A stretch of DNA of 64,000 nucleotides from an uncultured Alphaproteobacteria bacterium. Lineage in GTDB: Bacteria; Pseudomonadota; Alphaproteobacteria; Rs-D84. The position numbers were made by a program, and so were the translations under genes. The notes under the pieces are model-generated. The model searched no databases, had not been told where the DNA came from, and saw only the letters and a program-made list of their open reading frames with translations. The stretch spans positions 55,259-119,258 of the forward strand of contig CALXMR010000002.1 of the NCBI GenBank assembly GCA_944389525.1, written 5' to 3'. Numbering within the stretch: the stretch's first letter is position 1; each line of letters begins with the position of its first letter. Positions 52-34,862 of this stretch are shown here, piece after piece.

Positions 52-1047
52 TTGGTCCCAAAAGTTACGGTTTTATGTATGGCATACAATCAGGAACAGT
101 TCATTCGTAACACCCTGGATGGGTTTGTGATGCAAAAAACAAATTTCCCGTTCGAGGTTTTGGTACATGACGATGCTTCGACAGATAAAACGCCAGAAAT
201 TATCCGTGAATATGCAGAAAAATACCCTGGTATTATTATACCCATACTTTCAACAGAAAATCATTTCCGCGCAGGAAGAAATATTTTAATTGAAGAATTT
301 TATCCGCGAATTCGTGGCAAGTATGTTGCAAATTGCGATGGTGATGATTGGTGGACAGACGAAACAAAATTGCAACGGCAGGTTGATTTTTTAGACACAA
401 ATCCTGGGTTTTCAATTTGCAGTACCTGTGCCAAAGTTGTGTGGGCAGACGAAAGTAGGAAAGCATACATTTGGCCCGATAAAAGAATTTTGAAACGGCG
501 TTCCGTTCAGACAATTGCAGATATGCTGGAACAAAACGATATAATTAACAGTTCTGTGATGTACCGCTGGAACTTTGAACCACAAAATTGGCCAACAGCC
601 AACTTTATCCCAGGTGATTGGTTTTTACATTTATTACATGCCCGGCACGGAAAATTGAAAATATTATCCGCCCCCATGGTTAATTATACCAGGTGGAATG
701 GCGGTATATGGCAAGACGGTAGAAATCCTAAATTTCTTATCAATAATGCCAAAGAATTAATTCGTTTTTATGAATGTATAGAATCTGAGTTTGGTGTCGA
801 TAAATCTAAAGATGTGGGCAAAGTTGCCGCATCAATTATCTCTGCGTGTGTATCAGAAAATCGCAATGATGTACTTAATAACTTGACGGAATCGTTCCCC
901 GATTTAATTAAGTTCATCAGCAAACTTGCATTATCCCAGCACAAAGAAATAGAGTGTTTAAACACAAAATTAAAACATCGTAAACAGCTTTGGTACTACA
1001 TCGGTCCAGTTATATTAACAACAATGATCATTCTTGGACTATTATAA
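52..1047 (+). CDS. Family-2 glycosyltransferase (GT-A fold)
   Basis: 331-aa ORF with a TTG start 6 nt after AAGAGGG. The N-terminus VTVLCMAYNQEQFIRNTLDGFVMQ...VLVHDDASTD is the typical GT2 nucleotide-sugar binding region. A hydrophobic helix sits at the C-terminus. Confidence 0.8.
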   Translation: MVPKVTVLCMAYNQEQFIRNTLDGFVMQKTNFPFEVLVHDDASTDKTPEIIREYAEKYPGIIIPILSTENHFRAGRNILIEEFYPRIRGKYVANCDGDDWWTDETKLQRQVDFLDTNPGFSICSTCAKVVWADESRKAYIWPDKRILKRRSVQTIADMLEQNDIINSSVMYRWNFEPQNWPTANFIPGDWFLHLLHARHGKLKILSAPMVNYTRWNGGIWQDGRNPKFLINNAKELIRFYECIESEFGVDKSKDVGKVAASIISACVSENRNDVLNNLTESFPDLIKFISKLALSQHKEIECLNTKLKHRKQLWYYIGPVILTTMIILGLL

Positions 1048-1061
1048 AAGAGAAAAAAACA

Positions 1062-1778
1062 ATGAAAATCGGAATCATGCAACCTTATTTTTTTCCATAT
1101 TTAGGGTATTGGCAAACTCTAAATGCTGTTGATAAATATGTAATTTATGATGATGTTAATTATATCAAAAACGGTTGGATAAACCGCAACAATATTCTAT
1201 TAAACGGACAAAAGCATCTGATTACATTGCCGTTAGATGGGGCATCCCCATTTTTGCCAATCAACCAAATAAAAATTACATCGAAGATCAAAGAAAAAGA
1301 AAAAATTTTAAAAACATTGGAAATGGCATACAAAAAAGCACCACATTTCAATTCGGTATTCCCCATTGTCAAAGATGTTATAATGGACCCCAGTTGTTTG
1401 ATATCTAATGCGCTGATAAAACAATTTCGAAATGTATGTGAGTATTTAGATATAAAAACTGAATTGATAATATCGTCTAAACTAGTGAAAGATAATTCAT
1501 TAAAAGCCCAAGACAAAGTGATACATATATGTAAACTTCTTGGGGGGACAGACTATATAAACGCCATCGGTGGACAGGAATTATATTCCTTTGAAGATTT
1601 TGCCAAGAATGGTATAAATCTTCATTTTATGAAAACAATATTTACGCCATACAAGCAGTTTAAAAACGAATTTATACAGGGGTTGTCTATGATAGATATT
1701 TTGATGTTTAACAGCCCAGAACAAATTCGCCATATGTTGAATCAATATCAACTTATCAGCAACACAAAGGAACGATAA
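1062..1778 (+). CDS. WbqC-family protein (polysaccharide biosynthesis, function unknown)
   Basis: An internal ATG gives MKIGIMQPYFFPYLGYWQ..., the characteristic WbqC-like N-terminus. The 990 start would overlap the upstream gene by 58 nt and was not used. Confidence 0.7.
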   Translation: MKIGIMQPYFFPYLGYWQTLNAVDKYVIYDDVNYIKNGWINRNNILLNGQKHLITLPLDGASPFLPINQIKITSKIKEKEKILKTLEMAYKKAPHFNSVFPIVKDVIMDPSCLISNALIKQFRNVCEYLDIKTELIISSKLVKDNSLKAQDKVIHICKLLGGTDYINAIGGQELYSFEDFAKNGINLHFMKTIFTPYKQFKNEFIQGLSMIDILMFNSPEQIRHMLNQYQLISNTKER

Positions 1779-2713
1779 TGAATGCTATTGGCGGTTATTT
1801 TGGACTAGATAAAACACATGGATGTTTCGCAATTGATGGCGTGGCGGTAAATAGTGCACGTAATGCTTTGCGGTACATTATTCGTGCGTATAGCATCAAA
1901 GCGATGTGGGTGCCTTATTATACATGTCCAGTTGTATGGGATGCTTTGCGATCTGAAAATATAGATATGCATTTTTATAGCATAAATGAAAACTTGTTTC
2001 CTATTATACCAAGTGCTTCAAAAAATGCATTTGTGTTGGCGAATAATTATTTTGGTATATGTGGTAATAATGTTCAAAAATTGTCACACATATACCCAAA
2101 TTTAATTGTAGATAATGCACAGGCATTTTATGCGCCGCGTGTAAGTTTTGCGGATTTTTCCAGTCCACGCAAATTCTTTGGGTTGCCGGACGGTGGAATT
2201 GCTAGATGTGACGCCATAGTCTCTGAAAATTTGCAGATCAGTGTGTCGTGGGACAGATGTTTGCATTTATTAAAACGTGCTGATTGTGGTGCAACTGCAG
2301 GATATTCTGATTTTGTCGACAATGATGAAGCGTTGATTGGTAGACCTGTTGAATATATGTCAAATTTAACCAAACAAATGCTGGGAAATATTGATTATTA
2401 TGGTGCTCGTAAAATCAGATTACAAAACTTTGAGTATTTGCATAAACATCTTGGCAATATAAACCTTTTGCAAATTGATATGGCAGATACAGATGTTCCG
2501 ATGGTGTATCCTTTTATGACGAATGATTCTGGTATACGCCAGCGTTTGATTCAGAATAAGATATTTGTTGCAAAATATTGGCCAGGTATAGAACAAGAAT
2601 GTTGTCAGGATTCGTTTGAATTAAAGCTACAAAATACATTAATACCTTTGCCAATAGATCAACGATATGACATACATGATATGCAACGAATATTGGAGGT
2701 TATAAATGATTAA
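1778..2713 (+). CDS. DegT/WecE-like PLP-dependent sugar aminotransferase (short form)
   Basis: 311 aa with ATGA overlap to the upstream stop. Layout is NSARNAL...VPYYTCPVV...VDNAQAF...SSPRKFFGLPDGG, with a candidate PLP lysine in SxxK. It lies next to the WbqC gene, as is common in O-antigen loci. Confidence 0.55.
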   Translation: MNAIGGYFGLDKTHGCFAIDGVAVNSARNALRYIIRAYSIKAMWVPYYTCPVVWDALRSENIDMHFYSINENLFPIIPSASKNAFVLANNYFGICGNNVQKLSHIYPNLIVDNAQAFYAPRVSFADFSSPRKFFGLPDGGIARCDAIVSENLQISVSWDRCLHLLKRADCGATAGYSDFVDNDEALIGRPVEYMSNLTKQMLGNIDYYGARKIRLQNFEYLHKHLGNINLLQIDMADTDVPMVYPFMTNDSGIRQRLIQNKIFVAKYWPGIEQECCQDSFELKLQNTLIPLPIDQRYDIHDMQRILEVIND

Positions 2714-3479
2714 ACGTATATTAAAAAATTTGCTTAAATCAACGAATGAGACAGCCGTTATCCCTGAACCAATTATCGAACAAGAAATAAAACTACAACA
2801 GGTTTTTATCACGGATAATGGTATAAACAATATTGTTCAGGTTGCAGAAAACATAACTCCAACAGGTCAGGTAAAGATAGAAATAAAGGGTAATAATAAT
2901 AGAATTATTATTCGTGATTTAAGTAAAATGTGTGGCCAATTTAATATAAGTCTTAATGGTAATAATTGTGTTTTTGAATCTGGAAATGATTTATATATTG
3001 CGTCCAGTTTGGTGATTGTACTGGGACAGGATCATCAAAATTTTGGATTGATTGACAACACAAAATGTACATTGGGAAATAATATTTGTATTGAGGGCAT
3101 GTCAATTGTCACATTTCATAGCAATGCTTATATTGAACTTGGCAACAATTTGATGGTGTCTGATAATGTTGTTTTATATCATACAGATGGTCATCCGATA
3201 TATGATAATATAACCGGCAAAATAATAAATCCTGTACATCGTATGGTTGTTGGGGACGATTGTTGGTTGGGGGCAAAATGCACGATATTAAAAAATGTTA
3301 TTTTACCACCAGGAACAATTGTCGGGTATAACGCAGTTGTTTCAAAATCTTTTACTGATCCAAACGGAAAAACTTTTGTTTTAGCAGGTAATCCTGCAAA
3401 GATTGTACGCCGAGATGTTTTTTATAAACAAAGCGACATAGAATATATAAAAAACCAAATTTTTAACAAGGTGAACTAA
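2706..3479 (+). CDS. Left-handed beta-helix (hexapeptide-repeat) acyl/acetyltransferase
   Basis: 257 aa. The C-terminal half VVGDDCWLGAKCTILKNVILPPGTIVGYNAVVSKSF shows hexapeptide periodicity. The ORF overlaps the upstream stop by 8 nt, consistent with operon organisation. Confidence 0.7.
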   Translation: MIKRILKNLLKSTNETAVIPEPIIEQEIKLQQVFITDNGINNIVQVAENITPTGQVKIEIKGNNNRIIIRDLSKMCGQFNISLNGNNCVFESGNDLYIASSLVIVLGQDHQNFGLIDNTKCTLGNNICIEGMSIVTFHSNAYIELGNNLMVSDNVVLYHTDGHPIYDNITGKIINPVHRMVVGDDCWLGAKCTILKNVILPPGTIVGYNAVVSKSFTDPNGKTFVLAGNPAKIVRRDVFYKQSDIEYIKNQIFNKVN

Positions 3480-4745
3480 ATGATTAACGTACTTATCTTT
3501 CCCGCTGGTGAAATAAATTCTATTGAGTTACATGATGCGCTTGCAACTTGTGTAAATATTCATGTGGTTGGTGCTTCTTCTATTGACCGCCATGGACCCT
3601 ATGTGTTTGAAGACTATGTATCTGGGTTACCAATGATAACTTCCCCCGATTTTTTTGATGCGTTTAATAAATTGCTGGTAGATAAAAATATTGATGTAAT
3701 ATTTCCAACGCATGACACTGTTGCAAAATTCTTGGCAGATAACACAGACAAATTTAATGCAAAATTGGTTTGTGCCAACCGCGAAACATCCGATATTTGT
3801 CGTGATAAAGAAAAAATATATGCCGCACTGGCTGGTAACGATTTTGTTCCAAAAACATACGATAACATTGAAACATATCCTGTTTTTGTAAAACCCAAAG
3901 TAGGCCAAGGGGCAGTTGGGGCAAAATTGATAAAATCGCCATGTGATATTCCAAATGTAGACTGGAACGATTATGTGATTTGTGAGTATTTGCCTGGTCC
4001 TGAATATACGGTTGACTGTTTGACAGATAAAAATGGTGATTTGCGTGTTGTTTCTCCACGATCGCGCACACGTTTAATGGCGGGCATCTCTATGTCAGGT
4101 CAGACCGAGCCTTTGACCCCAGAAATTCAACAAATTGCCGAAACGATTAATAAACGGATGACTTTTTTAGGGTTATGGTGGTTCCAAATAAAGCAAGATG
4201 TGGCCGGTAAATGGAAATTATTAGAAATATCCACACGTGGTGCTGGTACGATGGCGTTGACCCGTGTTCGCGGAATAAACTTGCCATTGCTAAGTGTTTA
4301 TACTGCAATGGGGCACGATATAGATGTGCAGCCCAATAATTATATCGTAACAATGGACAGCAGTTTAATTCGGCGGTATAAAATAAATTATGACTATGAT
4401 ACGGTTTATTTTGATTTTGATGATACTTTGATTGTTCGGGGTAAAGTAAATTTGAAAGCAATTTGGTTTTTGTATCAATGTCACAATATGAATAAACGGG
4501 TAATATTGCTGACGAAACATGAAAATGAAATTTTTGAATCTATGGCAAAATATCATATTGATCGTGGTTTGTTTGACGCGGTGGTGAATATAAAACCTGA
4601 TGATAATAAAGCAAATTATATCAAACCCGAACGTGCGATTTTTGTGGATAATGCATATGCTGAACGCAATGCTGTGCGGTCAAAGCACAACATACCCGTT
4701 TTTGATGTTGATGGCATAGATGTTCTAATGGATTGGAGGTTTTAA
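3480..4745 (+). CDS. ATP-grasp ligase fused to a HAD-like phosphatase domain
   Basis: 421 aa. The N-terminal ~300 aa have an ATP-grasp layout (VFVKPKVGQGAVG, EYLPGPEYTVD, WWFQIK...LLEISTR). The C-terminal ~110 aa start with the HAD motif I FDFDDTLI. Confidence 0.65.
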   Translation: MINVLIFPAGEINSIELHDALATCVNIHVVGASSIDRHGPYVFEDYVSGLPMITSPDFFDAFNKLLVDKNIDVIFPTHDTVAKFLADNTDKFNAKLVCANRETSDICRDKEKIYAALAGNDFVPKTYDNIETYPVFVKPKVGQGAVGAKLIKSPCDIPNVDWNDYVICEYLPGPEYTVDCLTDKNGDLRVVSPRSRTRLMAGISMSGQTEPLTPEIQQIAETINKRMTFLGLWWFQIKQDVAGKWKLLEISTRGAGTMALTRVRGINLPLLSVYTAMGHDIDVQPNNYIVTMDSSLIRRYKINYDYDTVYFDFDDTLIVRGKVNLKAIWFLYQCHNMNKRVILLTKHENEIFESMAKYHIDRGLFDAVVNIKPDDNKANYIKPERAIFVDNAYAERNAVRSKHNIPVFDVDGIDVLMDWRF

Positions 4746-7142
4746 ATGAAAATAGCTCTTACATCTGTTTCTGATATAAAAAACTATGGGGATTTGTTAT
4801 TTCCTTTTATTGCCCGCCAGGAAATTCAGAAGCGTATTCCTGGTGCCAAATTTTGTTTCTTTACACCAACATCAGATGTCATAGAAGAACAAGAGTTTAT
4901 AGAATATTCACGAAAAAATATAGAAGAGTATGCCCCTGATGTGATTTTAACTATTGGTGGTGAAGTAATACACAAATATGATGATTTAGTATGGCAAGAT
5001 ATGTATCATGGCAAGGTGGCTAAGCCATCAAATGTGATTTTTGACTGGTTGGACTATCCTGCAAAATATAAAGCATGGTTTTCGGTTGGTGTCCTAGATC
5101 TGGGGGACCCCAAAATACCTGTATCAGATGAAGAGATTCGAAAATTGAACTATATCGGTGTACGTGGCGTGCTAAGTAAAAAAATAATGGAACACGGATT
5201 ATTTTTGAACACAAATCCGTCAATAAACATCGTGCCAGATATCGGGTGGATATTCCCCAGATATTTCAAGGATTATAAACGCACACTGAAACATATTGCA
5301 AAATCACAACATGTTGATTTAAAACCAAATAATTATTTTGTTTTTAATATCAATTGGACTTCGATTCCAGAACAAAAAATATTGGAAATTTTAAACATAC
5401 TGGCGGATTTTCAAAAACAAACGCATTTAAAATTGGTTATATTGGACGTTATTTCATCATATAAAAGATTATCAGTGAATATACCACAGTATTTTAAAGA
5501 CAACAAAGAAGTGATATGTCTTGCGGGTTTAAAGTTAAAGGAAACGGGGGCGTTATTGATGGGCAATCGTTTCTTTATCGGGTCATCATTACACTGCGCT
5601 ATTACTACATTGGCCAATGGGAAACCTGCGGCAGTAATACACAGGACCAAATTAACTAAATTGCAAGATTTGTTTGGCCACATGATGATGACGGATTTTG
5701 TTTCATATGATTGGGATGATCTGTCCGAATTATTACAGAAATTATATGATTTCAAGTCAACGGCAGTTCTGAAAAAGTACGTTGCTTTTATGCAGGCCTG
5801 TTTTGATAACAAGTTAGATGAATTGGTGCAAAAAATTATATCGGTTTGTAATATAAATAAACCAAAAATTATTTCATCTGTATGGAATTATATATACAAG
5901 CGTCCCCTGAAACATATTCGCAGGTTTTTGGCAAAAATTTCATTTATCCCAACCAAGGCAAAATTATTAGTTGTCGACAATTTCGAACCAAGTTTTTTGC
6001 AGACAGGGTTCCGGGTAAAAGAATTTATATGGTTGTTAAAAAATGCACCAGATTGCAAATTGTTAACATTTTCTTCTGATATAATGGTATATAATGACTG
6101 GATGAAAAGGCAAAAAACCAAGCAAATTATCTGGTCAACGCCCCAACCATCCAAGATTTATAAAAAACATGTGATGCAATATGCAAAAAAGTTTAATGTG
6201 GATAAAAAACGCTTTTTGTTTCTGCGATGTAAAAAATATAAGGCAGATGGCGCATATTTGATGTTCCTATATAATGCATATTTATCAAAGAATTTTTTAG
6301 AAAAAAATAAAATTCCTTTTGTTTTTACCTTGTTCCCGGGCGGCGGTTTAAGATTAGATCATGAATTTTCTGATTTTATGCTGCAAAGCGTGTTTTCATC
6401 GCCCATGTTTCGTGGCGTTTTTGTCCCACAGAAGGTAATATATGACTATTTGATTCAAAAGAACTTGTGCCCAAAGGATAAAATTTATTTTAGTTACGGT
6501 GGCGGTTTCTTTCAATTTACAAAAACAGACGTTCTGCCAAAACAATGGTACAAAAAAGACAAATCGACATTTGATATATCTTTTGTCGCCTATAAATATA
6601 TGAACCAAGGGTTGGATAAAGGTTTTGATTTGGTCATTCATGCTGCAAAAGAACTGGTAAAGAAATATCCATTTGTACATTTTCATTGTGTTGGCACTAA
6701 TACACTGGACGATTTTGACGAAGATTTTTCTGATATCGCAGATAATTTGCATTTTTATGGCTCTCGAACTTCTGATTTCTTTCCTTCGTTTTATGCCAAA
6801 ATGGATATGGCTTTATCACCTAATCGTCCAAATATGCTGGACAAAGGTTCGTTTGACGGCTTTCCCTTGTCAGTAGAAGCAATGTGGTTTGGGGTTCCAT
6901 TGTTTTGTACAGATGAATTGAAATTAAATCATAATTATGATGCGGGCAAAGATCTGGTAATTATACATCCTGATTTACAAGATATCACGGAAAAGATAGA
7001 AACGTTTATTAAAAAACCAGATTTGTTACAGCAGATAGGAACAAGAGGACAGCAAACAGTTCAGCACTATTTTGATATAAACAAGCAACAATCTGATAGA
7101 GCAAAATTTATAAACAAATATTTAAATATTAAAATAGACTAA
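4746..7142 (+). CDS. Polysaccharide pyruvyl-transferase domain fused to a GT-B (GT4-type) glycosyltransferase
   Basis: 798 aa. The N-terminal IKNYGDLLFPFIARQEI...SSLHCAI resembles the PS_pyruv_trans family. The C-terminal VHFHCVGT...LHFYGS...ALSPNRP...DGFPLSVEAMWFGVPLFCTDE resembles group-1 glycosyltransferases. Confidence 0.6.
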   Translation: MKIALTSVSDIKNYGDLLFPFIARQEIQKRIPGAKFCFFTPTSDVIEEQEFIEYSRKNIEEYAPDVILTIGGEVIHKYDDLVWQDMYHGKVAKPSNVIFDWLDYPAKYKAWFSVGVLDLGDPKIPVSDEEIRKLNYIGVRGVLSKKIMEHGLFLNTNPSINIVPDIGWIFPRYFKDYKRTLKHIAKSQHVDLKPNNYFVFNINWTSIPEQKILEILNILADFQKQTHLKLVILDVISSYKRLSVNIPQYFKDNKEVICLAGLKLKETGALLMGNRFFIGSSLHCAITTLANGKPAAVIHRTKLTKLQDLFGHMMMTDFVSYDWDDLSELLQKLYDFKSTAVLKKYVAFMQACFDNKLDELVQKIISVCNINKPKIISSVWNYIYKRPLKHIRRFLAKISFIPTKAKLLVVDNFEPSFLQTGFRVKEFIWLLKNAPDCKLLTFSSDIMVYNDWMKRQKTKQIIWSTPQPSKIYKKHVMQYAKKFNVDKKRFLFLRCKKYKADGAYLMFLYNAYLSKNFLEKNKIPFVFTLFPGGGLRLDHEFSDFMLQSVFSSPMFRGVFVPQKVIYDYLIQKNLCPKDKIYFSYGGGFFQFTKTDVLPKQWYKKDKSTFDISFVAYKYMNQGLDKGFDLVIHAAKELVKKYPFVHFHCVGTNTLDDFDEDFSDIADNLHFYGSRTSDFFPSFYAKMDMALSPNRPNMLDKGSFDGFPLSVEAMWFGVPLFCTDELKLNHNYDAGKDLVIIHPDLQDITEKIETFIKKPDLLQQIGTRGQQTVQHYFDINKQQSDRAKFINKYLNIKID

Positions 7143-28752: not shown

Positions 28753-30339
28753 CTATGCGACTGCGCGCGTAAAACTGCCAGAATCCAGCAGTTCTTTGAC
28801 CGCGAAATGCTTTACCTTTTTCGCAGATGTTTGCGGCAGTTCATCTTCGGTAATTGCAAAGTGCCGCACCCATTTATATGGCGCAATCTTTAAATTAGAT
28901 GCCTTGACCATGGTGGCGACACGCGATATCGGGGTGCCTGGCGTGACCTGGAATACGGCGAACGGGACAGTTTTACCCTTGATCACATATTCGAACACTG
29001 CCGCCGCCAATATGTCCTTGTTTTGCAGGTACAGGTCTTCCAATTCATCAGGATATACATTTTTCCCGCTGTCCAGAACGATTACCTGTTTTTTACGCCC
29101 CTTGACAACCAGACGGCCACGGCGATCCAGTTTGCCCAAATCACCAGTTTTAAACCAGCCATCTTCGAATGCGGCATTATTGGCGTCCTTGTTGCCGATA
29201 TATCCCGGCATAACCAATTTTCCGCGCACCCATATTTCACCAATACCATGCTTGTCAGGGTTATGAATTTCTATTTCATTACCCGGCAGCGGGCCTGCAT
29301 AGTGCATCGACCCGTCTGGCATGCGGAACGCAAAGTTAAAGTTCGCCGGTCCGGTTGTTTCTGTCAAACCATAGCAATCGCCAACGGCAAACCCCATTCG
29401 TTCAAAGAATTTGCGAATTGTGGGCTTTAATGTTGCGCCGGCTGAAACCAAAACTTTTGTGTTGCCCCCAAACAGGTCATGTACCGGTTTTGTAACCCGG
29501 TTAACAATCGCGCCCAACCCAACCGCACGCAAAACATGCCGCATCGAAATGACAACACGCATCAATGTATAAACATGCTTTTCTTTGGCGGTTTCGATAA
29601 TCTTTTTGTAAAAAGTTTCCCAGATACGCGGAACCGCGGGAATAACCTCTGGCCGGTATTTTTTAAAGTCTTGCATGAATTCGCGGGGGTTCAAGACCGG
29701 CTGTAACAACAGTTTGCCACGCAACACCAGCGGTGCAATGATATTTATCACCACGCCATATATGTGATACAGTGGTAAAAATCCGTAAAATGTGTAGCCA
29801 GGATGAATTACCGGCTGGTAAAATAATGCCCCATCCCCCAGTGAAATGATATTATCATGCGTCAGACCAACAACCTTTGGATTGCCGGTTGAACCCGATG
29901 TAAATGACAACATCGCGATATCGTCACGCGTGGCATCTGCGGCCGAAAATTCGCGTGCATCTGTATCGTCAACAGATTCGATATCATACATCTTTGGTCC
30001 CCCAGAAATAAAATAATTCCGCTGGGCCAATGCCAGTTTACATTTGGTTCGCCGCATCATGTTCAAATGTTCGGACTTTGCCAACCCGGTATCCAGCATC
30101 AACACACGTGCACCCTGGGACACGATGGCGAAATATGAACGAATAAAATCAGGGGTATTACCCGATAAAATCGCAACCGTGTCACCACGCCGAATTCCAA
30201 ACTTTTTCGCCAGCAATACGGCGCGTTGTTTGACGCGGCGCAGCAAATCTGCGTATGTTTCGTTTTGACGCACAAAAAATATGCGGTCTTTGTTTTGGCT
30301 GCAAACCTGGTGCAGCATGTCGTATATGTTTTTTACCAT
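28753..30339 (-). CDS. AMP-forming acyl-CoA synthetase (long-chain fatty-acid-CoA ligase-like)
   Basis: AMP-binding motif SFTSGSTGNPKVV, then YGLTET and GWFKTGDLG. The start was taken at MVKNIYDML. Confidence 0.8.
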   Translation of the reverse strand: MVKNIYDMLHQVCSQNKDRIFFVRQNETYADLLRRVKQRAVLLAKKFGIRRGDTVAILSGNTPDFIRSYFAIVSQGARVLMLDTGLAKSEHLNMMRRTKCKLALAQRNYFISGGPKMYDIESVDDTDAREFSAADATRDDIAMLSFTSGSTGNPKVVGLTHDNIISLGDGALFYQPVIHPGYTFYGFLPLYHIYGVVINIIAPLVLRGKLLLQPVLNPREFMQDFKKYRPEVIPAVPRIWETFYKKIIETAKEKHVYTLMRVVISMRHVLRAVGLGAIVNRVTKPVHDLFGGNTKVLVSAGATLKPTIRKFFERMGFAVGDCYGLTETTGPANFNFAFRMPDGSMHYAGPLPGNEIEIHNPDKHGIGEIWVRGKLVMPGYIGNKDANNAAFEDGWFKTGDLGKLDRRGRLVVKGRKKQVIVLDSGKNVYPDELEDLYLQNKDILAAAVFEYVIKGKTVPFAVFQVTPGTPISRVATMVKASNLKIAPYKWVRHFAITEDELPQTSAKKVKHFAVKELLDSGSFTRAVA

Positions 30340-30707
30340 ATTATTCCACTTTTTATATTTTGTTATATGCATGCGTAATGTTATGCACATGTATACTATA
30401 AACATTTTGTGGGCGGAATAACAACCTATTTTATGCGTTCAAAAAATTACCCTGTTCGTTTCTGTACAGATGCATTTTGTCAATATATAGACGCCGATTC
30501 GTAATTTTTTATCTATATTTTGTATTTTTGCATAAAAAACGAATCAGGTTTTCATCCAAAAAAACAAAATATTTCATACAAAATATCGTTTGGTGTATAA
30601 AATATATGAATCGCATCCCCCCCAACCCCGCAGAAAATCCCATTTTTAAAAAGTAAAGCGAAAAATGAAAAAAATTTTATTTTTTATCTGTTGCCGCAAC
30701 ACAGTAT

Positions 30708-30756
30708 ATACTATATATTGTTATCAAATTTAAAAAACAACCACTAGATATTGATA
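30708..30756 (+). promoter_or_regulatory. Two tandem NrdR-box candidates upstream of nrdD
   Basis: ATACTATATATTGTTA (30708-30723) and CCACTAGATATTGATA (30741-30756) were compared with the published palindrome acaCwAtATaTwGtgt. The starts are 33 bp apart. Confidence 0.55.
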
Positions 30757-30769
30757 TTGGGGTATAAAA

Positions 30770-32827
30770 ATGTCTGTATCAGAAAACGATAATAAAATTC
30801 AGATTATTCCGACACTTACCACGCGTTTGAATGTTGTGCAAAAGCGGTCGGGGGAAACCGTACCGTTTGATGCGAAAAAGATTTTTGACGCAATTAAAAA
30901 GGCCGTGGCCGTAACACACGAAATCACGGATATGCAGGTTGCAAATATTACCCAGGCCGCACTGAACAAACTGGATGTCGCGTTTGTCGCAAAAACACCA
31001 ACTGTCGAAGATGTGCAAGAGGCGGTTATCGAAGCCTTGATGGATGCGCGTGCGTATAAAACTGCACAAAGTTATATTATATATCGTCAAAAACGGACAG
31101 AGATTCGCGATTCTTATGTTGATGCGGTCGAAGTGATTGATGGCTATGTCGGTGGATCGAATTGGCGAATCAAAGAAAATGCGAATGTTGGATATTCGAT
31201 TGGCGGGCTGATTTTGCGCACATCTGAACGGGTGACGGCGGAATACTGGCTGAATCTGTACCCACGCGAAGTAGCCGAAGCGCACAAGAATGCATCAATT
31301 CATATTCATGACCTGGGGTGGTTAACTGGATATTGCGCCGGTTGGTCATTGCGCGAGTTATTGTACGAAGGGTTCAATGGCGTCCCTGGGTACCTGCAAT
31401 GCGAGCCGGCGCGGCATATGGCAACGGCGATTTCGCATATGGTGAACTTCTTGGGCACATTACAGAATGAATTTGCCGGCGCCCAGGCGTTTTCTTCGGT
31501 GGATACATATCTGGCGCCGTATGTTCGCGTGGATAATCTGTCGTATGCCGATGTTAAAAATGCCATGCAAACATTAATCTTTAACTGTGCGGTGCCATGT
31601 CGTTGGGGAACCCAGACACCATTTATTAACTTCACATTCGATTGGACATGCCCCGAAGATTTAAAGAATCAACATCCGTTCATCGGCAAGCAGCAAATGG
31701 ATTTCACTTATGGCGACCTGCAACCGGAAATGGATATTATAAATCGTGCATTTTTGGAAGTAATGACCGAAGGCGATGCCATGGGGCGGCCGTTTACTTT
31801 CCCAATTCCGACATATAATATCACCAAGGATTTCCCATGGTCGCACCCGAATGTTAAACCATTATTTGACCTGGCGGCCAAGTATGGAATTCCAAACTTT
31901 CAGAATTTCTTGAATTCTGATTTAAATCCGACCGATGTGCGGTCTATGTGCTGTCGGTTGCGGTTGGATGTGCGCGAATTGTTAAAGCGCGGTGGCGGCC
32001 TGTTCGGTTCGGCAGAAAAGACCGGGTCAATCGGTGTCGTTACAATTAATTTGGCACGGTTGGGCTATACGCACAAGGGCGACCGCGAAGGATTGTTCCG
32101 TGAATTAAAGCGTCTGTTGGATTTGGCGCGTGATTCACTGGAAATCAAGCGCCGCATTATATCAAAAAATATGGAACGCGGTCTGTATCCGTTTACACGC
32201 CGGTATCTGGGCAATTGGGATCATCACTTTTCGACAATTGGGGTAAATGGTGCCAACGAAATGGTTCGCAACTTTACCAACGACAAGGAAAATATTGCGA
32301 CCCCAATGGGCAAAAAATTGGTGCTGGATCTGATGGACTTTATTCGTGAAAACCTGGTCCAGTTCCAGGAACAAACCGGCAACCTGTATAATTTAGAGGC
32401 GACCCCAGCCGAGGGATGTTCATACCGATTTGCCAAGACAGATGTCAAGAATTTCCCAGACATTATCACGGCGGGGACCAAAGATGCACCGTACTATACA
32501 AATTCAACGCAATTGCCGGTGAATTATACAGATGATCCGTTTGTCGCGCTGGAACACCAAGAAGAATTACAGCGTAAATATACAGGCGGAACAATGTTGC
32601 ACCTGTATATGGGCGAACCTGTGTCCAGCGGTGCGGCCGCAGAAAAAATCGTTCGTACGATTTTCGAAAACTACAAGATTCCGTATATGACGCTGACGCC
32701 GACATTTTCAATTTGCCCAAAGCATGGATATTTGCCGGGTCGGTATGAATTCTGTCCAAAGTGTGATGCGGAAATCGCCGCAAATCAGAACGCGGTTATG
32801 GACGCGGCAGAAAAAGTTTTGAAATAA
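30770..32827 (+). CDS. nrdD: Anaerobic (class III) ribonucleoside-triphosphate reductase, large piece lacking the glycyl-radical loop
   Basis: 685 aa with an N-terminal ATP-cone (VQKRSGETVPFDAKKIFDAIKKA) and a long NrdD barrel. The Zn-ribbon CPKHG...CPKCD lies near the C-terminus. The ORF stops 19 aa later without an RxxG[YF] motif. Confidence 0.85.
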   Translation: MSVSENDNKIQIIPTLTTRLNVVQKRSGETVPFDAKKIFDAIKKAVAVTHEITDMQVANITQAALNKLDVAFVAKTPTVEDVQEAVIEALMDARAYKTAQSYIIYRQKRTEIRDSYVDAVEVIDGYVGGSNWRIKENANVGYSIGGLILRTSERVTAEYWLNLYPREVAEAHKNASIHIHDLGWLTGYCAGWSLRELLYEGFNGVPGYLQCEPARHMATAISHMVNFLGTLQNEFAGAQAFSSVDTYLAPYVRVDNLSYADVKNAMQTLIFNCAVPCRWGTQTPFINFTFDWTCPEDLKNQHPFIGKQQMDFTYGDLQPEMDIINRAFLEVMTEGDAMGRPFTFPIPTYNITKDFPWSHPNVKPLFDLAAKYGIPNFQNFLNSDLNPTDVRSMCCRLRLDVRELLKRGGGLFGSAEKTGSIGVVTINLARLGYTHKGDREGLFRELKRLLDLARDSLEIKRRIISKNMERGLYPFTRRYLGNWDHHFSTIGVNGANEMVRNFTNDKENIATPMGKKLVLDLMDFIRENLVQFQEQTGNLYNLEATPAEGCSYRFAKTDVKNFPDIITAGTKDAPYYTNSTQLPVNYTDDPFVALEHQEELQRKYTGGTMLHLYMGEPVSSGAAAEKIVRTIFENYKIPYMTLTPTFSICPKHGYLPGRYEFCPKCDAEIAANQNAVMDAAEKVLK

Positions 32828-32867
32828 ACAACAAAACCAAAAAAACAAGAAAGGGAGGAAAAACATT

Positions 32868-33053
32868 ATGTCAGAAGTAATCACGCAAAGAACACCATGT
32901 GAAATATTCTCGCGCTCTATGGGGTTTATCAGACCTGTTTCCAATTTTAACATTGGAAAATATTCTGAATTTTGCGAAAGAAAAACATTTACTGAGGCAA
33001 ACAGTCTGACCACTGGCCAGCGTCACAGTGAATTGATGAAGAAAGCGGCATAA
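32868..33053 (+). CDS. Separately encoded NrdD glycyl-radical tail (61 aa)
   Basis: GGGAGG lies 9 nt upstream of the ATG. CEIFSRSMGFIRPVSNFNIGKYSEFCERK matches the NrdD C-terminal radical motif (..YSR..GY.RPV..WN.GK..EF..R). Confidence 0.65.
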   Translation: MSEVITQRTPCEIFSRSMGFIRPVSNFNIGKYSEFCERKTFTEANSLTTGQRHSELMKKAA

Positions 33054-33057
33054 GGTT

Positions 33058-33795: not shown

Positions 33796-34290
33796 ATGGA
33801 ACTGAATCAGTTTTTTATTGATGAATACGATTCGCCAATTGGGAAAATTACCATGGCGGCGTGCGATGAAATGCTGTGCGGTCTGTGGTTTGTGGGACAA
33901 AAATATTATATAGCTGGCGTGCCAGAAAATTGCGTTGCAAATGCAAATGTGCCAATACTGAAACATGCAAAACAATGGCTGGACAAATATTTCGCCGGCA
34001 TGCAACCACGCGCCACAGAATTAACCATATCGCCACACGGTACAGAATTCCAGCGGCGGGTATGGCGCGCACTGGTTGATATCCCGTATGGTGCAACCAC
34101 GACATATGGCGATATTGCGCGGCGCATCGGCGCAAAATCACCGCGCGCCGTTGGCGCGGCAATTGGCCATAATCCGATATCTGTTATTATTCCATGTCAT
34201 CGCGTAATTGGGGCAAATGGGAACATGACCGGGTATGCCGGGGGACTGGGGATAAAACGATATCTGTTAACACACGAAGGCGCAATATGA
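33796..34290 (+). CDS. ogt: Methylated-DNA-protein-cysteine methyltransferase
   Basis: IIPCHRVIGANG active-site motif and TTYGDIARRIG helix. Confidence 0.85.
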   Translation: MELNQFFIDEYDSPIGKITMAACDEMLCGLWFVGQKYYIAGVPENCVANANVPILKHAKQWLDKYFAGMQPRATELTISPHGTEFQRRVWRALVDIPYGATTTYGDIARRIGAKSPRAVGAAIGHNPISVIIPCHRVIGANGNMTGYAGGLGIKRYLLTHEGAI

Positions 34291-34862
34291 CAAAATCACC
34301 CACATGGTCTGATGGCAAATGTCGATGCCACTGGGCGAACCCGAAAAATGAACGATATATAAAATATCATGATACTGTGTGGGGTATGGGTGTGCATGAT
34401 GATGCGGTGTTGTTTGAAATGTTAATATTGGAAACATTCCAGGCGGGTCTGTCGTGGGAATGTATATTGAACAAGACAGACGCATTTCGCCGCGCATTTG
34501 ATAATTTTGATATAAATGCGGTCTGTGATTATGATGCAGAAAAAATATCTGAATTATCCAACAATGCCGGTATAATACGCAATGGTCGCAAGATTGCCGC
34601 CGCCATAACTAATGCGCGCGTGTTTCGTGAAATTCAGCGCGAATACGGCACATTTGATAAATACATATGGCATTGGACGGGCGGGCGCGTGGTATACGAA
34701 TACGGCATTACGCGGTCAGAATTATCGGATAAAATATCCGATGACCTGCGGCGGCGCGGTATGCGATTTGTCGGCACAACAACAATTTATGCATATTTAC
34801 AGGCAGTCGGCATAATAAATGCGCACGAACCGGGATGTGTTTTGTATTCGTGCCAAAAATAG
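34287..34862 (+). CDS. tag: DNA-3-methyladenine glycosylase I
   Basis: ATGA overlap with ogt. CRCHWANPKNERYIKYHDTVWG...FEMLILETFQAGLSW is the Tag signature. Confidence 0.85.
   Translation: MTKSPTWSDGKCRCHWANPKNERYIKYHDTVWGMGVHDDAVLFEMLILETFQAGLSWECILNKTDAFRRAFDNFDINAVCDYDAEKISELSNNAGIIRNGRKIAAAITNARVFREIQREYGTFDKYIWHWTGGRVVYEYGITRSELSDKISDDLRRRGMRFVGTTTIYAYLQAVGIINAHEPGCVLYSCQK

Follow-up and report, generated by a model that had tools for sequence, protein, structure and literature searches.

Class III ribonucleotide reductases (RNRs) are anaerobic, glycyl-radical enzymes that make DNA building blocks without oxygen. We analysed a 64,000-nucleotide stretch of DNA from an uncultured alphaproteobacterium of the lineage Rs-D84 (GenBank assembly GCA_944389525.1, contig CALXMR010000002.1, positions 55,259 to 119,258 of the forward strand; hereafter the window), in which an nrdD gene for the catalytic chain of such an enzyme, a 61-codon open reading frame (ORF) and an nrdG gene for its activase follow one another. 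This three-gene operon very probably encodes an obligate two-subunit class III RNR, in which the catalytic chain is naturally divided and the glycyl radical is carried by a small, trans-acting subunit. The split is real, widespread and hiding in plain sight; its parts are ordinary for a class III RNR, and the radical glycine is predicted to lie off the catalytic chain.

Complementary matches to family models carry the assignment. The large ORF matched positions 1–529 of the 562 in the Pfam model NRDD (PF13597; E 2e-170, 568.5 bits, cutoff 26.2) and 4–657 of the 684 in NCBIfam NF006126 (1030 bits, cutoff 548), scored 465.8 bits with TIGR02487 (cutoff 326), and in phmmer searches matched the solved NrdDs 8p23, 4coi, 4u3e, 9d3x and 1h78. 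The small ORF matched positions 531–562 of NRDD, with an E of 5e-4 that alone falls below the gathering score, and 650–682 of NF006126. Because the two ORFs cover NRDD and NF006126 in this complementary way, with ends at 529 and 531 in the first model and at 657 and 650 in the second, they read as one NrdD in two parts, predicted to be complete when taken together and cut between the Zn-ribbon and the glycine loop. The large ORF has the barrel domain, the SCCR finger loop and the Zn-ribbon motif of a class III NrdD, with NrdG encoded alongside; the glycyl-radical loop (RxxG[YF]), which an NrdD is expected to have on the barrel polypeptide, was found on the separate 61-residue ORF. As judged from its sequence, the locus encodes every part of an NrdD, not as a single chain. 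When the small ORF was compared with Pfam at E up to 1, no pyruvate formate-lyase (PFL)-type Gly_radical domain was found, and NRDD was the sole relevant match. The nrdG product matched TIGR02495 (NrdG2; 185 bits, cutoff 131) and PF04055 (Radical_SAM).

The layout of the locus is given in Table 1. The large chain ends in ...CPKHGYLPGRYEFCPKCDAEIAANQNAVMDAAEKVLK (its end is also given as ...TPTFSICPKHGYLPGRYEFCPKCDAEIAANQNAVMDAAEKVLK-TAA), and the 61-residue product, MSEVITQRTPCEIFSRSMGFIRPVSNFNIGKYSEFCERKTFTEANSLTTGQRHSELMKKAA, is encoded in the +1 frame relative to nrdD. The small-ORF frame is open back to position 32823, with no ATG, GTG or TTG before the ATG at 32868, and a run of seven A at 32839–32845 lies downstream of the nrdD stop codon. 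Within the operon, the junctions on either side of the small ORF gave no promoter-like and no terminator-like site in a consensus scan. The original prediction, an earlier reading of the same DNA, had described a 685-residue NrdD with ATP-cone, barrel and Zn-ribbon that stops short of the glycine loop, followed after a 40-nucleotide gap and a Shine–Dalgarno (SD) element by the 61-residue ORF in another frame. Our reading of the sequence, together with the Pfam and NCBIfam matches for the large chain, bears out that layout, including the open frame and the seven-A run. The prediction that nrdG is the next gene also held; the spacing between the small-ORF stop and the nrdG ATG is four bases, not the five written there.

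Table 1. Features of the split nrdD locus, in window coordinates.
Feature	Coordinates	Strand	Basis
nrdD-large, class III RNR catalytic chain without glycyl-radical loop, 685 residues	30770..32827	+	PF13597, NF006126, phmmer
ATP-cone domain, residues 22-111	30833..31102	+	PF03477, E 7.5e-19
Finger-loop motif S392-M-C-C-R396, SCCR-type, predicted to carry the catalytic Cys	31943..31957	+	invariant in alignment A3
Zn-ribbon C649-x2-H652-x9-C662-x2-C665, all on the large chain	32714..32764	+	read from sequence
TAA stop of nrdD-large, 19 codons past the last Zn-ribbon Cys	32825..32827	+	sequence
A-rich intercistronic spacer, 40 nucleotides	32828..32867	+	sequence
SD element GGGAGG of the small ORF, 9 nucleotides ahead of ATG 32868	32853..32858	+	sequence
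Small subunit gene, 61-residue glycyl-radical peptide (predicted)	32868..33053	+	NRDD 531-562/562, homologues, dN/dS
Codon of Cys11 of the small ORF	32898-32900	+	alignments
Codon of Gly19, predicted radical glycine (RSMGF)	32922..32924	+	alignment with solved NrdDs
nrdG, radical-SAM activase, 233 residues	33058..33759	+	TIGR02495, PF04055
Sigma-70-like promoter candidate TTGCCG-17-TATATT upstream of nrdD	30691..30719	+	consensus scan, 9/12 matches, weak

The split is conserved throughout the clade to which the window belongs. In a scan of one genome per species, relatives of the large ORF were encoded at 573 or more loci, of which the best 80 (85–96% identity) were analysed; with the window they form a set of 81 metagenome-assembled genomes (MAGs) of gut Alphaproteobacteria, many of them named Candidatus Enterousia. 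All 81 have the split layout, with a stop soon after CPKCD (TAA in 78, TAG in 3), a spacer of 25–58 nucleotides (median 40, mean A content 0.57) and an SD-like site 6–10 nucleotides ahead of a single ATG, this site being the sole conserved element of the spacer. The nrdG gene starts 2–9 nucleotides past the small-ORF stop in 80 genomes and overlaps it by one base in the other. The original prediction had cautioned that a single-base indel, arising as a sequencing or assembly error, might have broken a contiguous nrdD, a caution invited by the A-rich junction with its seven-A run and by the open frame ahead of the small ORF. As far as sequence evidence goes, this explanation is ruled out, because such an error cannot recur in 81 independently assembled species-level genomes, among them the circular long-read MAG OZ007020.1; moreover, 28 of the 81 small ORFs are in the nrdD frame yet lie behind a stop codon, and isolate genomes of other genera are equally split. 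We accordingly regard an indel as exceedingly improbable.

Substitution patterns speak to whether the small ORF is a gene or a relic. Its 73 distinct sequences in the clade gave a mean proportion of nonsynonymous differences (pN) of 0.097 and of synonymous differences (pS) of 0.643, and the ratio of nonsynonymous to synonymous rates (dN/dS) had a median of 0.07 at a near-saturated median dS of 1.34. The small ORF is therefore a protein-coding gene under strong purifying selection, and it recurs far beyond chance; its conserved core in the clade is RTpCE.FSRSMGFIRpVsNFNiGKYSEFcERKTFTE. One could suppose instead that nrdD is truncated and decaying and that the 61-codon ORF is a remnant heading for loss, since gene decay is common in small genomes and this genome is apparently small (a related circular MAG has 0.96 Mb). 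The low dN/dS across lineages contradicts this, as do the 85–96% identity of the large chain across the clade, the conserved SD site, the retention of nrdG and the occurrence of the same architecture in denitrifiers that live freely and are reported to need the locus in order to denitrify completely; decay thus has scarcely any chance of being the right account. Pairing with the anti-SD sequence was strongest for the small ORF: the duplex medians over the 81 genomes were -11.3 kcal/mol for the small ORF, -5.9 kcal/mol for nrdD and -1.7 kcal/mol for nrdG, when the best-pairing Met of the small ORF was taken, which is the sole candidate in 80 of 81 genomes. That the small ORF has the strongest SD site of the operon fits, without proving it, production of the small subunit in excess.

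A second caution in the original prediction was that a programmed frameshift might fuse the two frames. We considered recoding by a +1 frameshift or by stop read-through, either of which would give a single fused NrdD, with the small ORF not translated separately. A +1 shift at the last sense codon of nrdD (AAA before TAA) would indeed fuse the frames through a K/N/Q-rich linker, and contiguous relatives with long linkers exist (see below). The junction, however, has no conserved geometry. Relative to nrdD, the small ORF lies in frame 0, +1 or +2 in 28, 31 and 22 genomes (chi-square p 0.46 against a uniform distribution), the spacer varies more than two-fold in length, and the seven-A run falls after the stop codon; what is conserved, in 81 of 81 genomes, is the SD site with an ATG 6–10 nucleotides behind it. 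On the sequence evidence, programmed frameshifting is ruled out because three different frame relations occur among relatives, and the unlinked and gene-interrupted arrangements and the free 51-residue protein of Pseudomonas stutzeri described below further argue against recoding, which we consider very unlikely. Protein trans-splicing by a split intein, which would rejoin the two products after translation, might suit a break that falls between two structural modules. Split inteins, however, take up about 100 plus 35 residues; on either side of the break lie segments of just 19 and ~10 residues, which vary among relatives and gave no intein match in Pfam, making trans-splicing the least credible of the alternatives considered. 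Conservation of the split with its SD site, purifying selection on the small ORF and the presence of the same split elsewhere strongly support the proposal of a naturally divided class III RNR that had been made from the window sequence.

Alignment with solved structures points to Gly19 of the small ORF as the radical residue. A PDB sequence search with the 61-residue ORF alone gave no match; because this ORF is too short for a PDB sequence match, we joined the end of the large chain to it, leaving out the variable tail (a virtual junction). With this query, Gly19 aligned with the glycine of ...CPKCGSHH-IDKLQRITGYL... in Prevotella copri NrdD (chain residue 715, which we equated with native Gly711, as the deposited chain has four extra residues) and with the glycine of RIVGYL in Thermotoga maritima NrdD (...CPVCG-KAKVDEYMRIVGYLVPVSAFN...). 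The radical residues of these enzymes are Gly711 (PMC11226230) and Gly621 (PMC4493059), respectively. A query that kept the natural junction gave one weak match, judged spurious, and the alignment ran through the glycine only after the tail was removed. Gly19 was invariant in the three alignments made (A1, A2 and A3, the last comprising 15 split enzymes). In A3, residues R391, S392, M393, C394, C395 and R396 of the finger loop were likewise invariant, as were C649, H652, C662 and C665 of the ribbon; an SCCR motif and Zn binding through CxxxHx6CxxC have been described for T. maritima NrdD (PMC4493059). The window motif, CxxHx9CxxC, lies entirely on the large chain and aligns with the T. maritima motif, and its four residues are predicted to be Zn ligands. 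In the P. copri work the glycyl radical domain is taken to run from the Zn site through the buried Gly loop to a surface tail and is described as highly mobile (PMC11226230); the break between the window's two ORFs falls inside the domain so defined. These alignments and the NRDD match agree with the earlier view of the small-ORF core as the glycyl-radical segment of an NrdD.

The small ORF has a further conserved residue, Cys11, eight residues N-terminal to Gly19, which was invariant in the split enzymes of A1, A2 and A3. It has a counterpart in every contiguous subfamily member listed, aligns with Asp in the structures from P. copri and T. maritima and with Ala in phage record MT835493.1, and is not among the four ribbon ligands, all of which sit on the large chain.

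We also modelled the joined chains with AlphaFold2. The accepted run, which used an alignment of contiguous homologues plus separate large and small homologues, gave a predicted local distance difference test score (pLDDT) of 78.9 and a predicted template modelling score (pTM) of 0.73, with a confident barrel; a run of the joined chains without an alignment gave a pLDDT of 35.8 and was useless. When the accepted model was searched with Foldseek, the top 36 matches were all class III RNR structures.

Protein and genome searches place the split in other bacteria numbering well over 1,000 species, and also in many viral contigs. Homologues of the small ORF numbered 277 at 90% clustering, the best 120 all having 57–92 residues, and a search of 1.84 billion representative proteins returned 1079 representatives (50% clustering, E ≤ 0.001), the best 150 all having 47–121 residues. 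Nearly all of the small homologues start with Met and have a variable N-terminus followed by the core [DE]RxPCE[IV][WYF][ST]R[VSA]MG[YF]xRPVxxFNxGKxxE; a Zn-ribbon was present in just two, which resemble fragments of contiguous enzymes. A profile of 35 more distant small proteins retrieved at least 8000 candidates from the 90%-clustered database (top 120 all 57–100 residues). Genome scans with a profile of distant small proteins gave at least 598 confirmed loci, the best 80 of which were examined. These 80 included isolates of Undibacterium, Noviherbaspirillum, Herminiimonas, Massilia, Duganella, Janthinobacterium, Acidovorax, Castellaniella, Alcaligenes, Devosia and Afifella, and MAGs of Sutterella, Sulfuricella, Chlamydiae, Elusimicrobiota, Verrucomicrobiota, Coriobacteriia and Deinococcaceae. 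In 68 of the 80, the small ORF was closely preceded by a large nrdD ORF that stops 10–25 residues past the ribbon, with frame offsets divided 13/20/35, and the large chains of those 68 loci (from Burkholderiales, Sutterella, Devosia, Afifella, Chlamydiae, Elusimicrobiota and others) were 55–63% identical to that of the window.

Searches of plasmids by tblastn added 161 records (Ralstonia 132, Bradyrhizobium 7, Cupriavidus 5, Paracoccus 4, and others). On megaplasmid pHG1 of Cupriavidus necator H16, RefSeq lists a 676-residue 'ribonucleoside triphosphate reductase', a 66-residue 'nrdD' and NrdG; the large chain ends in ...CPRCDEEILARKRDQLAA, and the small protein is MIHHDQSAQFTQSLPGHAALRDEERQPCEVWTRVMGYHRPVSSFNVGKQGEHRERRFFSEPHAIAT. 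The pHG1 nrdDG locus is reported to be required for complete denitrification by C. necator H16 (PMC2864759). The same three genes are present in a genome of Candidatus Moranbacteria (Patescibacteria), and a stand-alone small ORF was found in 68 of the best 80 viral-contig loci.

Some loci depart from the common pattern. Eight viral contigs (L340, L344, L355, L356, L362, L380, L396 and L402) have ~60–95 open residues ahead of the Gly loop and encode a larger small protein with a C..C Zn-ribbon-like motif; in these the break seems to precede the ribbon, so that the small protein would hold the radical domain in its entirety, and group I introns or homing-endonuclease insertions may offer an alternative explanation. 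At another locus (L242/L243, 1770–4267), a 743-residue nrdD and an 88-residue small ORF overlap by one base (4001) with no adjacent nrdG, a geometry that suggests translational coupling; the gene at this locus is not an exact translation match to the queried protein. In Pseudomonas aeruginosa, NrdD is listed at 76 kDa, the size of a split large chain, and PA1920/PA1919 may be a further case of the split.

The small gene need not adjoin nrdD. In several Sutterella and Burkholderiaceae MAGs it is monocistronic, lies far from any nrdD and is followed by a terminator-like hairpin, and at three loci in MAGs of the same groups (L274, L278 and L279) nrdD is followed directly by nrdG, with no small ORF between them. 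Because both orphan small genes and nrdD–nrdG loci without a small ORF occur, the two halves of the enzyme can be unlinked. The unlinked gene is at ~3000–3200 of loci L130, L150, L151 and L156. In a metagenomic locus (L240/L241, genes at 761–5374), an Abi_C-domain gene (348 residues) separates nrdD from the small ORF, which a 23S_rRNA_IVP-family gene (122 residues) in turn separates from nrdG, with a class I/II RNR gene just downstream; junctions of the split operon accept insertions.

A separate small protein has been detected in P. stutzeri ATCC 14405. There, nrdD (672 residues, 1008053–1010071), a 51-residue ORF (1010146–1010301) and nrdG (1010298–1010993) follow one another, and the 51-residue ORF is annotated 'oxidoreductase' with a COG1328 match of E 1.3e-31 (PMC10433244). 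Its product was found by mass spectrometry solely under oxygen limitation, with 22 peptides and 113 peptide-spectrum matches in digest-free runs; a reading of this protein as a radical subunit is absent from the authors' interpretation (PMC10433244). We take the 51-residue ORF to be a homologue of the small subunit on the basis of the COG1328 match and its operon position. Two polypeptides have been demonstrated for this presumed homologue only, the window being known from two genes.

Contiguous enzymes also belong to the subfamily. A profile of joined sequences retrieved split and contiguous enzymes at equal similarity to the window (55–60% identity), and a motif screen counted 83 split-type large chains (668–698 residues) and 37 contiguous enzymes, 4 more contiguous enzymes being missed by the Zn-motif pattern. 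Contiguous members such as those of Desulfovibrio/Solidesulfovibrio (P0489, P0491) and phage record MT835493.1 are 55–59% identical to the window, with the same Zn-ribbon and a CE[IV]WTRVMGY-type loop; they differ in having the loop covalently joined to the ribbon. Two types of linker connect them. In the first, CP.C is followed by 3–8 residues and then CE[IV]WTRVMGY; the second has 9–47 residues that combine the tail motif of split large chains (DAEILARK in P0400) with the N-terminal motif of the small subunit (L.D.ER..CE). Linkers of 17–47 residues with both motifs were seen in P0400, P0381, P0463, P0380, P0385, P0423 and P0468. From their sequences, the long-linker contiguous forms look like re-fused or not-yet-split genes. 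Because split and contiguous states are interspersed on a rough neighbour-joining tree (654 barrel columns, no support values), more than one fission or fusion event is suggested. The phage gene (L244, 1530–3938 of MT835493.1) encodes a contiguous 802-residue NrdD with what reads as a C-terminal glutaredoxin-like extension, preceded by a radical-SAM gene of NrdG-like type and followed by a thioredoxin-reductase-like gene, an arrangement that fits the thiol-dependent type of class III RNR.

In the two-subunit enzyme that we propose, the 77-kDa chain of 685 residues has the ATP-cone, the Zn-ribbon and a barrel of ten strands whose finger loop is predicted to bear the catalytic Cys, and the 7-kDa protein of 61 residues, translated from its own strong ribosome-binding site, would supply the radical-glycine loop with Gly19 and the tail that follows it. 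The small protein would bind the large chain non-covalently, with its Gly loop entering the barrel opposite the Cys loop as in solved NrdDs, a docking that we infer from homology. NrdG would take the hydrogen of Gly19, either on the free peptide or on the complex, and for catalysis the radical would then cycle to the Cys of the finger loop. In a glycyl-radical chain, the glycine is where oxygen cuts. More speculatively, it would be the highly translated 7-kDa peptide that is replaced after such damage, instead of the 77-kDa enzyme. A wider proposal, which we put forward tentatively and think possible rather than probable, is that an overlooked large fraction of class III RNRs are two-subunit enzymes with the radical on a consumable peptide of ~60 residues, which NrdG would activate in its free form, which would then dock into the barrel, and which a fresh copy would replace after oxygen cleavage, the enzyme being repaired with no new 77-kDa chain; this would take in Cupriavidus, Ralstonia, Paracoccus, P. 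stutzeri, gut Sutterella and Enterousia, Patescibacteria and many viral contigs.

Several points weigh against the two-subunit enzyme or its oxygen-repair rationale. That the peptide carries the radical and binds the large chain is, for every split enzyme, something we infer from sequence, and the window itself comes from a metagenome-type genome known from sequence alone. In the AlphaFold2 model, pLDDT falls below 50 at the Gly tip (joined-chain residues 703–706) and at the finger loop, so docking is neither supported nor excluded by the model. As to repair after oxygen damage, the split is found also in Patescibacteria, which we take to be obligate anaerobes, and contiguous forms persist in the same subfamily. 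We considered a link between the split and facultative or denitrifying lifestyles and set it aside, as the association was not clean: Patescibacteria and other presumed anaerobes are split as well.

By analogy, the nearest functional counterpart of the small subunit is GrcA/YfiD of PFL, a parallel already drawn in the original prediction. Part of it stands: GrcA (and phage T4 Y06I) is, like the window peptide, a small stand-alone homologue of a radical C-terminus, presumably activated by the enzyme's activase. The other part does not, since a complete PFL is present alongside GrcA, which takes the place of its oxygen-cleaved domain, whereas the window's large chain has no loop of its own and the peptide would for that reason be obligate, not spare. 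The peptide also differs from GrcA in being a homologue of NrdD and not of the PFL Gly_radical domain, in having half the size and in lacking the Zn-ribbon part of the NrdD radical domain. A reading of the small protein as a spare part of this kind, rescuing an otherwise complete but oxygen-damaged NrdD, could appeal to the likeness to GrcA and to the bin CAVKJM01, which has an operon copy (nrdD–small ORF–nrdG; L256, CAVKJM010000024.1) plus an orphan small gene (L094, CAVKJM010000023.1, 2992-3174) between a UvrD-like helicase gene and a rubrerythrin gene, the latter presumably an oxidative-stress gene. That orphan may be a genuine spare connected with oxidative stress, or it may come from a mixed metagenomic bin; three Sutterella assemblies with an orphan had no second small copy among the best 80 loci, and the large chains of all 81 clade genomes, the window included, are without a glycine loop of their own, which would make the peptide obligatory. 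We judge the spare-part reading unlikely and retain that of an obligate subunit. In a 2026 review, spare-part proteins are known for formate-lyases only (PMC13450708).

Compared with canonical NrdD/NrdG systems (Escherichia coli, phage T4, T. maritima, P. copri and Streptococcus thermophilus), the window shows no change in domain content or order: ATP-cone, barrel, SCCR-type finger loop, Zn-ribbon, glycyl-radical loop and C-terminal tail. It also resembles them in its adjacent NrdG2-type activase and in a Zn motif similar to the Cys-His-Cys-Cys site of T. maritima, and its matches in sequence and fold are to structures of such enzymes. It differs in that the NrdD chain ends past the Zn-ribbon and the Gly loop and tail form a separate 61-residue product with its own SD site; all of the solved or biochemically characterised NrdDs that we checked carry the loop covalently. 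There is a precedent in the class II NrdJa/NrdJb of P. aeruginosa, an RNR whose catalytic chain is shared between neighbouring genes and expressed as two separate polypeptides (PMC4860495). That enzyme differs from the window's in belonging to the B12-dependent class, in its break point and in keeping the radical-bearing residue with the barrel, and the comparison is one of analogy, not of membership.

Neither a split NrdD nor a small RNR subunit with a glycyl radical was found described in the literature searched, which was the openly readable literature, with subscription-only papers outside its scope; this accords with the original prediction, which knew of no separately encoded radical module for class III RNR. 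Curators of the RNR database may be aware of the split, and RefSeq already annotates the two parts as separate genes, as with the 66-residue 'nrdD' of pHG1. In annotation pipelines the small ORF becomes a 'hypothetical protein', an 'oxidoreductase' or another 'nrdD'. The genome paper of Cupriavidus metallidurans gives NrdDG as Rmet_5137 and Rmet_5139 and passes over the intervening gene. A phylogenetic survey applied a length filter of 400–1100 residues (PMC9531940), and length-filtered surveys of this type discard the small subunit.

Other features lie around the operon. The promoter candidate upstream of nrdD (Table 1) is weak evidence, as fewer such sites were found in the region than in its shuffles. 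Just 5' of nrdD (window 30698–30760) are two AT-rich stretches that are palindromic in part, ACACAGTATATACTAT and CCACTAGATATTGATA; by eye they resemble NrdR boxes, with ~12/16 and ~10/16 matches, respectively, to the consensus. Further upstream, an AMP-binding (acyl-CoA-synthetase-like) gene lies on the opposite strand (28753–30405). Immediately downstream of nrdG are DNA-repair genes for an O6-methylguanine methyltransferase (Ogt-like, 33796–34290) and a 3-methyladenine glycosylase (Tag-like, 34194–34862), whose longest ORFs overlap by 97 nucleotides; translation of Tag probably begins at an ATG further in.

If the radical glycine is routinely a separate subunit, the subunit composition of this enzyme would have to be redrawn for many bacteria and viral contigs, and if the small ORF is essential, an enzyme obtained by cloning just 'nrdD' and 'nrdG' from these organisms would be inactive. 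A loop on a free peptide could be added, labelled, mutated or exchanged, which would make the way in which a buried Gly loop comes out of the barrel and meets its activase directly testable. A cheaply replaceable radical peptide could matter at oxic–anoxic boundaries such as the gut mucosa and denitrifying niches. Should the consumable-peptide proposal be true, it would extend the 'spare part' principle from PFL to DNA-precursor synthesis and nature would provide a system that allows the installation of the radical to be physically separated from catalysis.

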